Source of the DNA: an uncultured Phycisphaerales bacterium | Lineage (GTDB): Bacteria > Planctomycetota > Phycisphaerae > Tepidisphaerales > Tepidisphaeraceae | DNA: 64,000 nt | Assembly (NCBI GenBank): GCA_963758525.1 | Contig: CAVWVQ010000003.1 | Span: 1,728,001 to 1,792,000, forward strand | Direction of reading: 5' to 3' | In this document: one piece after another, positions 58,781 through 64,000 of the stretch | Layout of the letters: the number at the start of each line of letters is the position of its first letter | Position numbering within the stretch: position 1 is the stretch's first letter | The notes under the pieces: generated by a model | What the model saw: only the letters and a program-made list of their open reading frames with translations | What the model was told of the DNA's origin: nothing | Databases searched by the model: none | Translations under genes and position numbers: made by a program

Positions 58781-59362
58781 TCAGTACGTCGCCCCGTGCT
58801 CCAGCAGAAGTTCCGCGATCGCCGGGGAATGATAGCGGCGCGCAATCACCAGCGGCGGCGGGGCCCGATCGGTGCGGGCGTTCACATCAGCGCCATGACG
58901 AATGAGCATCGCGGCGGTCGCGTAATCCCGATTCCAGGTGGCGTAGTCCAGAGCCGTCCAGTCGTTGTGATCCCGAGCCTCGACGTTGGCTCCCTTCTCA
59001 ACCAGAAACGCCGCCACGTCCCCCGACCGGTAAAACACCGCCTCGATCAGCGGCGTCCCCTGCTCGCTATCGCGGGCTTCGAGATTGGCGCCATGTTCCA
59101 CCAGCACCCGCGCCGCTGCCAGTTGATCGGCATAGGCCGCGTAATGCAACGGCGTATAACTGCTGGAGTCCGGCGCATTGACGTCCGCCCCCAACGCGAT
59201 GAGCGCGCTGATCCGATCGGTCCGCCCGCTCCTGGCCGCGCCCGTCAACGTATTGACGCTCGCCGGAGAATTCGCGGCGCACCCAACCAGACACGAGGCG
59301 GCAAACCCCACCGCCATGGCAAACACGAAACAACGACGTGAGATATGTGAGATCAACTTCAT
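58781..59362 (-). CDS. ankyrin-repeat protein, probable lipoprotein
   Basis: TPLHYAA, TPLIEAV, TALDYA; signal peptide ending LVGC. Confidence 0.88.
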   Translation of the reverse strand: MKLISHISRRCFVFAMAVGFAASCLVGCAANSPASVNTLTGAARSGRTDRISALIALGADVNAPDSSSYTPLHYAAYADQLAAARVLVEHGANLEARDSEQGTPLIEAVFYRSGDVAAFLVEKGANVEARDHNDWTALDYATWNRDYATAAMLIRHGADVNARTDRAPPPLVIARRYHSPAIAELLLEHGATY

Positions 59363-59589
59363 ATCGGCAACGTTCATACCGAAGCTCCCGTACGACGTCC
59401 TTTGCGGATCAGAAGCATACGGTAGCAAGAGCAGCAGTTTGCCGGCACTGGGAATTCAGCCGCAGCGATCGAGTCCCGATGTCAGGCATGGGATCGGGCC
59501 CCGCAATTGCATCAAAATGACATCATCGGATCACTGGCGTTCGGACGCCGCGACATTTTCGCTGCACGCCGAAGCGAGGCACGCAACCG

Positions 59590-60084
59590 CTACCCCTCGG
59601 CGGCATCCGCGAACGCGACGTTGCCGGGATGAATGTCGAGCAGCGTGAAGCCGGTTGCCAGCCGGAACATCTCGGCGACGTGTAATGCGTCGTCCAACCG
59701 ATCGCCGAACATCTCGCGCATGCGCTCCTGATGCTCGGCTACGATCTCTGCGTCAAAATCCGGGACCTGATTTGGCCGTTTCGCCCCGGCGAAATCCAGC
59801 ACGAACGGCCGCTCAACGATCGTCATCTCGATGGCAAGTAACGCATCATCAAAATCGAGGAGCTTGGGAACATTGTGGTCCGCGATGCGCCGCGTTCCTT
59901 TGGCAGACAGAATCAGATAAACTTCCAGTTCACGCTCAAATCGCTCGCGCCGGTCAAAGAATTTAACGGCACTGAACCGATCTGAGCGCAACACGAAGCC
60001 GTCTTGTCCTGGTCCCGACCCCAGGAAGCCCTGCAGTTGGCAATTGTACCGCGAGGTAAAAACGGCTATTCGAGGATCGACCAT
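59590..60084 (-). CDS. small kinase-like protein
   Basis: LGSGPGQDG Gly-loop, AVK, ERE, LDF, DIHPGN. Confidence 0.6.
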   Translation of the reverse strand: MVDPRIAVFTSRYNCQLQGFLGSGPGQDGFVLRSDRFSAVKFFDRRERFERELEVYLILSAKGTRRIADHNVPKLLDFDDALLAIEMTIVERPFVLDFAGAKRPNQVPDFDAEIVAEHQERMREMFGDRLDDALHVAEMFRLATGFTLLDIHPGNVAFADAAEG

Positions 60085-60361
60085 GGAACCCTCCCTCAAA
60101 TCCCCAACGCCCCGCGCCGGCTCGCCATGGACCTATGCATCGCTCGCCGTGATAGACGGCCAGCGATGCCTGAAGCCGGCGCAGGTGGGACCGGATCATC
60201 TGCTGTTCTCCAAGCCCCCTCGCCTGACAGGCGAGCGGATCGAGATCATCCTCCAAAACGGCGACGAAGAGCAACGCAGCTTCGCCAATGTCCTCCCGCA
60301 TCCCGCCGATGCCACGATGATACCAATTCAGCTTCTGATACCCAGCCAAAGCCCATCGTGA
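60083..60361 (+). CDS. hypothetical protein
   Basis: 92-aa beta-rich ORF (AQVGPDHLLF), divergent from the kinase-like gene. Confidence 0.45.
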   Translation: MEPSLKSPTPRAGSPWTYASLAVIDGQRCLKPAQVGPDHLLFSKPPRLTGERIEIILQNGDEEQRSFANVLPHPADATMIPIQLLIPSQSPS

Positions 60362-60376
60362 GAATTTCTTCTCGCG

Positions 60377-60484
60377 ACGGACGTGGGGCCGCGTTCGGAT
60401 GAACGCGGAAGTTCGCAATTGGCCCGGGAAACTTCCCTCGGTGGCATAGCTTCAATGGAGCCGCGCGCGTGAAGGGGCGGAAAT
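60377..60484 (-). CRISPR. single-spacer mini-array of degenerate type I-G repeats
   Basis: Minus strand: ATTTCCGCCCCTTCACGCGCGCGGCTCCATTGAAGC (36 nt), 36-nt spacer, ACTTCCGCGTTCATCCGAACGCGGCCCCACGTCCGT (36 nt). Confidence 0.8.
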
Positions 60485-60908
60485 CGTGGGCTCCTTGTGG
60501 GTCGCGACCGCAATTCGCCACGAAAATAAATCGCTGCACCGGACAATTCCCACTGAACCACTGTTGTCAGTGACGCTTGGTAGAAGCAGTCAACGGCAAA
60601 CGCTGAACGCGCCCCGTTTAGCCGGTGGGCACCTGTCTTGAGCGAAGTCGAAAGGATGCCCGCCGTGTCGCCGCAGGCGAACCCCCCCCCTGTCGCGAGT
60701 ACGGAAAATGTTTGGTGAACGGTTTGCGGCTCGATAACGTACGCCTGCTCACATCGGGGGAACTCAAGAAGTACCCCGACCGAGCCGGAGGCCAGGGTGG
60801 CCGAAGCTCCGCACTATCGGGGCGACGCGCGGAACGAGCGAATTATGCCAATGAGCGAATGAGTGGAACACTCGTCCGCGTGACGGTTTGACTGCAAAGG
60901 GCGGCCAA

Positions 60909-63572
60909 ATGACCCCGGAACAATTCAGGATCGTGTTCAAGCAACTGACCGACAACCGGCCATTTCCATGGCAAGAGGCGCTCTACGAGCAATTCATCTC
61001 AGATCGGCCTGACAACATCCCCGCGTCGTGTAACATCCCTACGGGATTGGGGAAAACCTCCGTCATCGCAATCTGGCTGATCGCGCTTCTGAACCATCCT
61101 GCCAAGATGCCGCGCCGTCTCGTCTACGTCGTCAATCGACGGACGGTGGTGGACCAGACAACAACAGAAGTCGAAAAACTTCGTGAAAACCTGCCGAAAT
61201 TGAAATCTTCTCTGAACGCTCTGGCGATCAGCACACTGCGTGGTCAATTTGCCGACAACCGCGAATGGTCCGCCGACCCTTCTCGCCCGGCAGTGATATG
61301 TGGGACGGTGGACATGATCGGTTCGCGATTGCTGTTTAGCGGATATGGCATTGGTCGAAACAGCAAACCGCATCATGCGGGTCTGTTGGGGCAGGATGTG
61401 CTGCTCGTGCATGATGAAGCCCATCTTGAGCCGGCATTTCAGGAGTTGCTTCTTTCGATTGAGAAACAACAAAGCGAGCTTGAGCGGACAGCCCTTCCCT
61501 GGCGCAAACTACGAGTGATGGAGCTTTCCGCCACTTCCCGCAGCGGAGGCGAAGTTTTTGAACTTACGGAAGCCGAGAAGACGCCACCAAATCCGCTACC
61601 CGATAGCCCTTCAGATCCGATCCACTTTGCGTGGCTTCGACTCAGTGCAAAGAAAGGCATCAAGCTGATCCCGGTTACAAGGAATCTTGTTGCCGCGACG
61701 ATCGGCAGCATCGCTCTCGACCGTTGGAAGTCCTCCGGTAAAGCAATCCTGATTTTCGTACGCTCCATCGATGACGTAAAGGCCGTCCGTGCGGAGTTAA
61801 CCAAGAAGATGATCGGCGTTCCCGATGACCAAGTTCAAATTCTCACAGGCACGAAGCGCGGCTTGGAACGAAATCGGTTGGCGACGGATGACGCGGTCTT
61901 CGCTCGTTTTCTTCATTCTCCGATTGCCACTCCCAAGTCTGGAACTGTGTACCTGATCAGCACATCAGCCGGGGAGGTGGGGGTGGACCTTTCGGCCGAC
62001 CATCTTGTCTGCGATCTGACTCCACTTGATAGTTTCATGCAGCGCCTAGGACGCGTCAATCGTCGGGGTTTCGGCGCCGCGGAGGTTGATGTTATCTATG
62101 AATCGAATCCCGACCCGAAGCCCAGATCGCCAAAGTTTGAGGCGGCGCGTCTGAAAACTCGCGACGTTCTTGCCACTCGTCTCGTCAAAGCGGATTGGAT
62201 TGAGGACCGACTGGATGGATCGCCGCTCGCGCTTCGCGGGCTAAACCTCAGCGATCTTGAGCGTGACGAAGCGTTCACACCCAAGCCAAGGATCGTACCC
62301 GCGACTGAAATCGTGTTCGATTCCTGGTCACTCACAACGATCAAGCATGAATTTCCCGGTCGGCCGCACGTCGAACCATACCTGCATGGGATCGCGGATT
62401 GGGATCCTCCACAAACCCAGGTCGCCTGGCGCGAGGAGGTTGGAGTCATCACCGCAGGCCTGCTGGGCGAATACGAGCCGTCCGATCTTCTCGAATACTA
62501 CCCGCTCAAGCCGCATGAATGGCTCACCGACCGCTCGGACCGCGTATCGAAAGAACTTGCCGACATCGCAGATCGGAACAACGGTCAATTTGCCGATACG
62601 CCCGTGTGGCTCGTGGATGGGACGGGCGCAGTTAATGTCGTCAGGCTTGGAGAGCTCGCCGACAAACAGAGGAAAGGCCAAATCGAAGGTCGGACCGTCC
62701 TGCTTCCGCCCATGGTTGGTGGACTGACGGGTGACGGAATGTTGGATGGGAAATCACCGTCTGCAAATGACGTGGCCGACGAATTCAAGGTCGAGGTGAA
62801 GAGCAATGGGATCGAATCGCTCGAAAACGGGCGTGTCCGCGTATGGGACAGCGACCCGATGCGAAGTGGAAAAGTGAAATGGATGCGCTTTATCTGCAAG
62901 ATTGTCCCGGCGTCAGAAAGTCAAAATGGTGACGAGGATTCTCCCCCGAACTCATGGCAGTGGTTCAAACGCGCCGAGGTTGGCGATACCGATGGATCAA
63001 AGGCCGCGGCCGCACCAGTCTTATGCGACGTTCACACGGCCGACGTAGTCCGCGAAACAGAGGGCTTCATCTCTCGCCTCCCCGAACTTCCCGACGCATT
63101 GAGACGGGTCCTCAAACTTGCCGCATACTATCACGATCAGGGGAAACGCCGCGAGCTGTTCCAGCGGGTGCTCGGTAACACAAATTTGTCAGTAGCGTGG
63201 GCAAAGTCCGGTGGACGGAGAACGCCCCGTGACCTTCGCACTCCGTACCGCCATGAATTCGGCTCCCTCCTGGACATCCAGCAATCCGGTGAATTCAAGT
63301 CGCTTGACACCCACGCGCAGGATCTCGTGCTGCACCTCATCGCTGCCCACCACGGCCGCGCGCGGCCTCACTTCGAAGGCGAAGAGGTTTTCGACCCGGA
63401 TCACCCCGATGACGTCGCCATCGCGTTGGCGACCGAGACGCCCCGACGCTTCGCCCGGCTCCAACGCAAGTTCGGACGATGGGGGCTAGCTTACATCGAA
63501 TCCCTGCTCCGCGCGGCCGATCACGCGGCCAGTGCATGCCCGTCGGAAACTGTGAAGGAAGATTACGAATGA
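60909..63572 (+). CDS. cas3: type I-G (I-U) Cas3 helicase with C-terminal HD nuclease
   Basis: PFPWQ, PTGLGKT, YVVNRRTVVDQ, DEAH, SAT, QRLGRVNRRG; C-terminal HDQGK, RHE, AHHG, LRAAD. Confidence 0.93.
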   Translation: MTPEQFRIVFKQLTDNRPFPWQEALYEQFISDRPDNIPASCNIPTGLGKTSVIAIWLIALLNHPAKMPRRLVYVVNRRTVVDQTTTEVEKLRENLPKLKSSLNALAISTLRGQFADNREWSADPSRPAVICGTVDMIGSRLLFSGYGIGRNSKPHHAGLLGQDVLLVHDEAHLEPAFQELLLSIEKQQSELERTALPWRKLRVMELSATSRSGGEVFELTEAEKTPPNPLPDSPSDPIHFAWLRLSAKKGIKLIPVTRNLVAATIGSIALDRWKSSGKAILIFVRSIDDVKAVRAELTKKMIGVPDDQVQILTGTKRGLERNRLATDDAVFARFLHSPIATPKSGTVYLISTSAGEVGVDLSADHLVCDLTPLDSFMQRLGRVNRRGFGAAEVDVIYESNPDPKPRSPKFEAARLKTRDVLATRLVKADWIEDRLDGSPLALRGLNLSDLERDEAFTPKPRIVPATEIVFDSWSLTTIKHEFPGRPHVEPYLHGIADWDPPQTQVAWREEVGVITAGLLGEYEPSDLLEYYPLKPHEWLTDRSDRVSKELADIADRNNGQFADTPVWLVDGTGAVNVVRLGELADKQRKGQIEGRTVLLPPMVGGLTGDGMLDGKSPSANDVADEFKVEVKSNGIESLENGRVRVWDSDPMRSGKVKWMRFICKIVPASESQNGDEDSPPNSWQWFKRAEVGDTDGSKAAAAPVLCDVHTADVVRETEGFISRLPELPDALRRVLKLAAYYHDQGKRRELFQRVLGNTNLSVAWAKSGGRRTPRDLRTPYRHEFGSLLDIQQSGEFKSLDTHAQDLVLHLIAAHHGRARPHFEGEEVFDPDHPDDVAIALATETPRRFARLQRKFGRWGLAYIESLLRAADHAASACPSETVKEDYE

Positions 63573-64000
63573 GTAAACCCCTCACTGTCAAAGTAGATCT
63601 GACCAACCCCGGCCAGTTCTTCGCCTGCTGCGGTCTGCTGGAACTCGCCAGCAGGTTGGACACTCACGCGGAGGGTTGGTTTAAGGAGGACTCGTTTTGC
63701 GTCGCGGGACAAATTGAGGGCGTGGTAGACAAATTTCTGGCCTGCAACGTCAGTCCGATCCCGACAGAACCTTCCGCAGGCAACGACGACGATGACGCAG
63801 AAGCGGACGATGCCGCGGTGCCTAAGACTACACCGCTTCAAGTCGGACCTCCGTTTAACATTCGCCTTGACTGGTGGCGCGATCCGGCTGCGACCACGAA
63901 GGCCAAGCTCAAGACGTGGTCCGCCGGTCAGAAGGTGACCGATCTTTTCAACGGAACGACCAAGACCCGCACAACGAAGAAAGGACCAAAGGACTCCTAT
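63569..64000 (+). CDS. cas8: type I-G/I-U Cas8 large subunit, partial
   Basis: MSKPLTVKVDLTNPGQFFACCGLLELA...LDWW...KTWSAGQ; ATGA overlap with the cas3 stop. Confidence 0.8.
   Translation, partial: MSKPLTVKVDLTNPGQFFACCGLLELASRLDTHAEGWFKEDSFCVAGQIEGVVDKFLACNVSPIPTEPSAGNDDDDAEADDAAVPKTTPLQVGPPFNIRLDWWRDPAATTKAKLKTWSAGQKVTDLFNGTTKTRTTKKGPKDSY

Follow-up and report, generated by a model that had tools for sequence, protein, structure and literature searches.

The closest described counterparts of the element analysed here are CreR guides and regulatory CRISPR mini-arrays. The accessible text of the CreR study (10.1101/2023.03.10.532045) reports experiments in types I-B, I-E and V-A, not I-G, and names creA-like elements for type I-U (= I-G) in its Fig. 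S7, as predictions. Shmakov et al. (10.1101/2023.03.03.530964; PMC10120712), in the portion available, report regulatory mini-arrays in 4% of 235 I-G loci (Table 1) and describe a tolerated sixth-position mismatch. As a PAM, TTN was shown for the Geobacter type I-U system (PMC6547450) and is cited for the Thioalkalivibrio type I-G system (PMC9638904), and Bifidobacterium uses TAT or TAC (PMC9335239), each as far as the accessible parts of these sources go. The partly accessible literature also indicates that type I-G needs Cas3 for good target recognition. Within the accessible literature, with subscription papers and bioRxiv figures and supplements outside its coverage, we found predictions and no experimental case of a CreR or mini-array guide in type I-G. 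The type would be a sharp test case for such guides, in that Cas3 is stable in the effector and aids target recognition, and repression would take place with the nuclease aboard.

The mini-array and its genomic setting

The window, by which we mean the whole 64,000-nt stretch of DNA analysed here, ends within a CRISPR-Cas locus. The cas3g gene is at 60909..63572 (+ strand) and encodes a helicase/nuclease of 887 aa (TIGR02621, 624 bits for a cut-off of 400). The start of cas8g is at 63569..64000 (+ strand); its full protein of 283 aa, a member of a divergent Cas8g clade, runs past the window. The complete set of cas3g, cas8g, cas7 (GSU0053), csb2 (GSU0054), cas4/1, cas2 (recognised from its translation only) and array establishes the type I-G assignment proposed in the sequence-only reading. 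The main array, with 42 repeats ending in ATTGAAGC, is at C3:1796347-1799349, about 4.3 kb outside the window. This genome has a second array (G000:C3:3908779-3909850) with 17 repeats of another type, which we take to be I-C-like.

The element under study is a mini-array outside the main array and on the opposite strand to it, 425-427 nt from cas3g as measured from its first repeat. Read on the minus strand, it consists of a degenerate repeat R1 (60449..60484), a 36-nt spacer (60413..60448) and a second degenerate repeat R2 (60377..60412). R1 retains the 8-nt 5' handle ATTGAAGC at 60456-60449 but folds weakly (-4.7 kcal/mol, z +1.1), no better than shuffled sequences. R2 has lost the handle and keeps an intact hairpin with an 8-bp stem (-13.4 kcal/mol, z -3.1), to be compared with -15.8 for the main repeat. 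The geometry of two degenerate 36-nt repeats around one 36-nt spacer, and the division of handle and hairpin between them, are thus as the sequence-only reading had described them. Comparison with the main array shows that the repeats are related to it, R1 and R2 each matching the main-array repeat at 25/36 positions (69%). The repeat-pair score of the element is 50.5, when the maximum in a null of 463,753 nt of cas3 coding sequence is 22.9. A contig from a public soil run, which may stem from the same study as this genome, is identical (0 differences) over 60403-60609. We conclude that the mini-array is a genuine element of the CreR/crlRNA kind. Its predicted crRNA-like product is a 72-nt RNA (60385..60456, minus strand), assuming that Csb2 cuts both repeats, since the Csb2 cut site and the 72-nt size are given in the accessible part of PMC9638904. 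An Rfam search gives no match near threshold, a scan for sigma70-like motifs finds no minus-strand promoter for the mini-array, and a stricter promoter scan finds 0 sites across 60000-61000.

Two small genes adjoin the mini-array. A 92-aa open reading frame (60083..60361, + strand), which belongs to no named family, converges on it; this frame is present in 4 surveyed cas3 loci, and the mini-array is present in 4/4 of them. Downstream of the mini-array and on the same strand is a 164-aa gene with a minimal protein-kinase fold (59590..60084, minus strand; PADLOC ST_Kinase PDLC01137, E 7e-30), back to back with the 92-aa frame, their start codons overlapping. The PADLOC ST_Kinase family has already been noted beside CRISPR loci. 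A structure model of the kinase built from an alignment has a pLDDT of 96 and matches APH/RIO-type kinase folds with Z of 6-7.5, with no single clear family; the single-sequence model is poor. In the gene, a conserved LDF motif precedes a DxxxxN motif, and the usual protein-kinase motif order is DxxxxN before LDF. The kinase gene occurs in 8 surveyed cas3 loci, with a mini-array in 8/8, and in 47/141 family genomes, where a mini-array is at most 1.5 kb from the kinase in 7 of the 30 family kinase loci retrieved and is not found within that distance in the other 23. At 58781-59428, on the downstream side of the kinase, is the gene for an ankyrin-repeat protein that likely bears a lipoprotein signal.

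Guides and targets across cas3g loci

We gathered 189 cas3g loci, this one included and mostly planctomycete, and scanned the 182 with at least 150 nt upstream. A mini-array was called from a repeat-pair score of at least 27.5 together with a full stem; L059, L130 and L142 were excluded as ordinary arrays, and L100 was added by hand. The survey identifies 32 elements in 31/182 loci, every one with a different spacer. When the search imposes no PAM, TTN flanks the top-scoring local target in 27/32 elements, with scores of 20-25, and one further element has a CTC-flanked target paired at 15/15. Only L034, L092, L202 and the present locus give matches at background level. Controls with swapped spacers score 16-21, with a TT flank in 7/95. 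The pairing follows a six-base rhythm. Positions 6, 12 and 18 match in just 2, 5 and 7 of the 27 TTN targets, positions 1-5, 7, 10 and 11 match in 25-27 of them, and a joint mismatch at positions 8 and 9 is found in 0/27. The 32 elements have 28 strong local targets between them, every one with T at position -2. A sigma70-like motif overlaps 13/27 TTN targets and 3/108 nearby control sites. The surveyed loci are related to one another, and these counts are not independent trials. Even so, different spacers that pair with different targets under one rule amount to strong covariation for the guide class. The class named in the sequence-only reading, a CreR/CreA-type guide at a type I-G locus, is borne out, and the guides of relatives hit PAM-flanked sites near cas promoters. 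The survey yields 27 guide-target pairs for type I-G, each with a TTN PAM, that show the six-base mismatch rhythm, several of them on divergent promoters. In one relative (G001; L290, G001:C69, 1967-3093), we observe two tandem mini-arrays. Three of the guides there have a target flanked by TTN; one such target is on divergent promoters that precede the kinase gene, and another is on the -10 element of the cas7 promoter.

The PAM of the present system can be approached through its Cas8g. In a quick tree, this protein and those of five other loci (53-57% identity) make up a long-branch clade, and it is only about 30% identical to the Cas8g of most TTN users. One locus of the same clade, L147, has a guide target paired at 15/15 after TTG. 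In G485 (L238), whose Cas8g is 44-48% identical and stands outside the tree set, the guide target is paired at 14/15 after GTG. Both have T at -2. The PAM of this Cas8g clade may be read from these two regulatory targets, which are thin evidence. Protospacer searches with the main-array spacers give no credible match in phage and plasmid records, in the genome itself or in two soil runs. As a source of the PAM, the phage match of main-array spacer 1 was set aside as too divergent, with 9-10 mismatches overall and flanks ATG/ATA. Separately, this leader-proximal spacer resembles a phage structural gene family (virus contigs L266, L267 and L272), with at most 24 matches over the first 25 nt.

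The gap beside R1 and probable decay of the locus

Upstream of many I-G operons there is a palindrome of the type CTGACA-N5-TGTCAG, found here at 60551..60572 (no strand assigned). The distance from the R1 handle to the palindrome is 104 nt, and this gap holds no target and no minus-strand promoter motif. In family relatives the distance is 790 nt (G021), 620 nt (G013), 536 nt (G032) and 609 nt (G485), and the interval in all four holds a PAM-flanked target and a small open reading frame; a promoter motif is found at the target in G021 and G013 and is absent in G032, in a scan run without G485. G001 and G003, which are arranged differently, were left out of this comparison. The public soil contig spans 60403-60609 unchanged, so the short gap does not come from a local assembly error, with the reservation that the run may stem from the same study as the genome. 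Genes for WYL regulators are near the palindrome in G021, G013 and G032, and the palindrome may be a WYL operator. As a side observation, one more repeat, standing alone, is found in G021 where the WYL gene ends (L022:3640-3675), on the strand opposite to the G021 mini-array.

Other parts of the locus also differ from those of relatives. The cas4/1 gene (G000:C3:1794947-1795873, L001:8948-9874; 308 aa) lacks about 290 residues in frame, a loss that has likely put an end to adaptation, even though the 42 repeats of the array show almost no variation. In csb2 the reading frame changes near residue 430 of about 500 (L001, near 8725), ahead of the last conserved His, which is kept in 97% of 106 homologues. 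This frameshift may be an assembly error. In the assembly, rpoB and rpoC are whole and several housekeeping reading frames are short; two of the short frames (353 and 284 aa) carry what we take to be an EF-G/LepA motif, and others presumably dnaK, secA and uvrA motifs. Genome completeness is 90.9%.

Taking these observations together with the survey, we think it fairly probable that the element is a one-spacer guide of the CreR/crlRNA type, orphaned in a decaying locus. Its PAM-flanked target, its own promoter and the small neighbour gene would likely have been deleted from the gap beside R1, and the guide, likely silent or aimless, would no longer repress anything at this locus. The literature and the pattern in relatives suggest what the ancestral module would have done. 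Csb2 would have processed the transcript into a guide of about 72 nt, the guide would have been loaded on Cascade-Cas3, its PAM-proximal 15-17 nt would have bound at divergent promoters beside R1, and these promoters would have been repressed without cleavage, as in CreR or CreA. Several observations pull against an orphaned guide. The well-kept handle and hairpin suggest recent function, and the AAT-flanked site upstream of cas3g, discussed below, matches the spacer above local chance and, at 65 nt before cas3, resembles in position the targets of six relatives, which are 23-54 nt before cas3. The low identity of this Cas8g to those of most TTN users, the small number of targets behind its PAM, the weaknesses of the assembly and the incomplete genome count in the same direction.

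Alternative readings and comparison with known systems

The sequence-only reading had proposed that Cascade represses its own operon by pairing with a site at 60841..60859 (+ strand), an AAT flank followed by a 13/16 match, 50-65 nt upstream of the cas3g ATG. The match, the flank and the distance are all present as it gave them. The pairing at 60844-60859 is perfect over the first 7 nt and has mismatches at positions 8, 9 and 13 (and 17). In the 427-nt interval from R1 to cas3, the criterion that was set after the fact in that reading is reached by 4/3000 random genomic 36-mers, the 13/16 match by 13/3000, the anchored score by 28/3000, and the score that ignores the flipped positions 6 and 12 by 79/3000. 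The match is therefore above local chance, by a margin that depends on the measure used. Elsewhere in the genome, 7 further sites satisfy the same match criterion. The score of the site is 19, and swapped-spacer controls reach 19 or more in 39/95 cases.

As a functional target the site fares poorly. The AAT flank is unlike the TTN of 27/32 elements and of published I-G systems, and unlike the TTG and GTG at loci with this type of Cas8g; its A at -2 stands where all 28 strong local targets, and both targets used above for the Cas8g clade, have T. The mismatches do not follow the six-base rhythm of relatives, and no TTN target of the 27 combines 8 and 9. No promoter-like motif overlaps the site, which is equally true of 14/27 valid targets in relatives, and the site starts 104 nt downstream of the predicted cas promoter TTGGTG-N17-TAACGT (60712..60740, + strand; predicted transcription start near 60747). 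The TTGGT-N17-TA...T layout is common to this genome (G000), G001 and G002, and the second G001 guide targets the equivalent -10 element after TTT, paired at 12/15, which supports 60712-60740 as a regulated promoter. Nor is the site kept as a target in G003, whose spacer is the most similar among relatives. With PAM, mismatch pattern and conservation all off, autorepression by Cascade through this site is not supported, and an incompatible PAM and a match that relatives do not conserve are among the outcomes that the sequence-only reading itself had named as refuting it; the site is likely not a functional target, and the target named in the sequence-only reading is probably wrong.

The history of the leader points to how such a match may have arisen. 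Among all surveyed upstream regions, 60689-60859 aligns best with the leader of G002, a member of the same genus with a cas7-first I-G operon, with a score of 53 that is modestly above noise (runner-up 47; five shuffles 42-47). Over 13 nt (60847-60859, target bases 4-16) the site has the very sequence of the cas7 start junction of G002, and ATG-AGC-GAA-TGA at 60851..60862 (+ strand; MSE-stop) is likely a relic of a former cas7 start. Because target bases 4-16 equal this junction, the target bases behind the mismatches at 8, 9 and 13 are old. What speaks against this history is that this genome and G002 differ in precisely the first three bases of the seed. On the spacer side, 14 of the first 20 nt equal those of the mini-array spacer of the family relative G003, the closest likeness among 496 pairs. 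The two spacers have bases 9 and 13 in common, and three of their six differences are at positions 6, 12 and 18. The G003 spacer does not match the cas7 junction of G003 itself. We infer that the AAT site is a partial coincidence, in which an old motif of the spacer, GA.GGAAG, met a cas7 start junction that is old as well. The leader also contains a dispersed REP-like repeat (60612..60684, no strand assigned), whose core is present in 8 genome copies and which is split here by a nested 24-nt second repeat with a related 14-mer in 9 copies in the genome; another copy of the REP-like repeat adjoins a REP-transposase-like fragment. No longer homologues were found for an 88-aa reading frame spanning the leader, which is weak evidence.

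Even so, the guide could direct Cascade-Cas3 to 60844-60859, which is part of the 5' leader, and cas transcription would then be weakly blocked, with AAT accepted as a PAM by this divergent Cas8g or a T of the PAM dropped by the assembly. The distance of the site from cas3 is like that in six relatives, a Cas8g of the long-branch clade could differ in PAM, and weak guides are known in relatives (12/15 in L137 and for the second G001 guide). The region 60806-60879, which includes the site, is covered by no contig of the public soil run, and the weakness of the assembly seen in the housekeeping genes applies to the AAT flank as well. There is a homopolymer difference at 60682, and one extra T beside the flank would turn it into ATT. 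We hold this circuit to be unlikely in view of the A at -2, the joint mismatches, the position about 100 nt downstream of a conserved promoter and the failure of the similar G003 spacer to match its own junction, but it keeps some weight because the local match is above chance and the PAM bases are unconfirmed by contigs.

Other sites in the genome were considered as targets and rejected. A register shifted by 2 nt, with a TTA flank, pairs at only 10/15, and the R1 stem gives no shifted cut. Near the mini-array there is no good TTN-flanked match, the best in-register local TTN site scoring 15. Genome-wide, the best TTN site (score 22) falls within a long reading frame, and 12/25 shuffled spacers do as well or better; the TTT and GTG sites are also in long reading frames, with scores at shuffle level.

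A rather improbable alternative is that the guide is active elsewhere, with its target in unassembled DNA or in a mobile element, or that it serves as a decoy that ties up Cascade. In its favour are the likeness to the G003 spacer, with three of the six differences at 6, 12 and 18, the lack of a local target and of a good TTN target in G003 as well, and the incompleteness of both genomes (completeness of G003 is 85%). However, the shared motif with a T.. flank is found in 1/141 family genomes, as is a reversed control pattern, the single viral match of 17 nt has a GGC flank and diverges past position 17, and the mini-array has no promoter motif. Last, a plain remnant of an ordinary CRISPR array with an old foreign spacer, never regulatory, would account for the ordinary 36-nt spacer, the lack of a valid self target and repeats 69% like the main repeat, but it is very unlikely given the asymmetry of a kept handle and a kept hairpin, and the placement and orientation that it has in common with the valid-target guides of G013 and G032, next to the same small reading frame and kinase gene, and with those of G485 and G559, next to a kinase homologue.

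What this locus teaches is chiefly a correction: however good a seed match looks, it does not make a target if the PAM and the mismatch pattern do not fit. For experiments, G001, G021, G032 and G485 make better candidates than this locus.

In the portions of the literature accessible for comparison, the mini-array resembles the CreR of Liu et al. in having two degenerate repeats and one spacer upstream of a cas operon, with a 5' handle retained in the first repeat and a 3' handle in the second. The difference is in the targets, which for CreR have the canonical PAM and mostly sit next to the cas promoter; the only local match here has neither feature. It shares with the mini-arrays of Shmakov et al. 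a transcription, here predicted, away from cas3, whereas all of the targets manually examined in that work, as far as its accessible text goes, have a proper PAM, and here the flank is AAT. The share of loci with a mini-array is higher in our survey (31/182 cas3g loci) than the 4% in the available table of that study, with a different method and a mostly planctomycete set. From what is accessible on the I-G systems of Thioalkalivibrio (PMC9638904) and the I-U system of Geobacter (PMC6547450), this locus has the same genes (cas3g, cas8g, cas7, csb2, cas4/1 and cas2), a 36-nt repeat with an 8-nt handle and a 72-nt crRNA, here predicted; unlike them, it has a long-branch Cas8g, an internally deleted cas4/1 and a csb2 that is frameshifted in the assembly. 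With CreTA/CreA of Haloarcula hispanica, as described in the accessible text of the CreR study, the likeness is in the relatives, whose targets abut divergent promoters, one of them facing the guide, and in G001, where the order of target, minus-strand promoter, kinase and mini-array is the creT-creA order. By analogy, the planctomycete I-G mini-array could be the antitoxin of a CreTA-like addiction module with the 164-aa kinase as toxin, an idea we regard as doubtful. If it were true, Cascade-Cas3 would hold down the promoter of kinase and guide, loss of Cascade would release the kinase, and the copy in this window would be in the course of losing its guide or of aiming it anew. The difference from CreTA, again within the accessible account of that system, is that the linked gene here encodes a 164-aa protein with a predicted kinase fold, and that most family kinase loci (the 23/30 given above) carry this gene with no mini-array within 1.5 kb.
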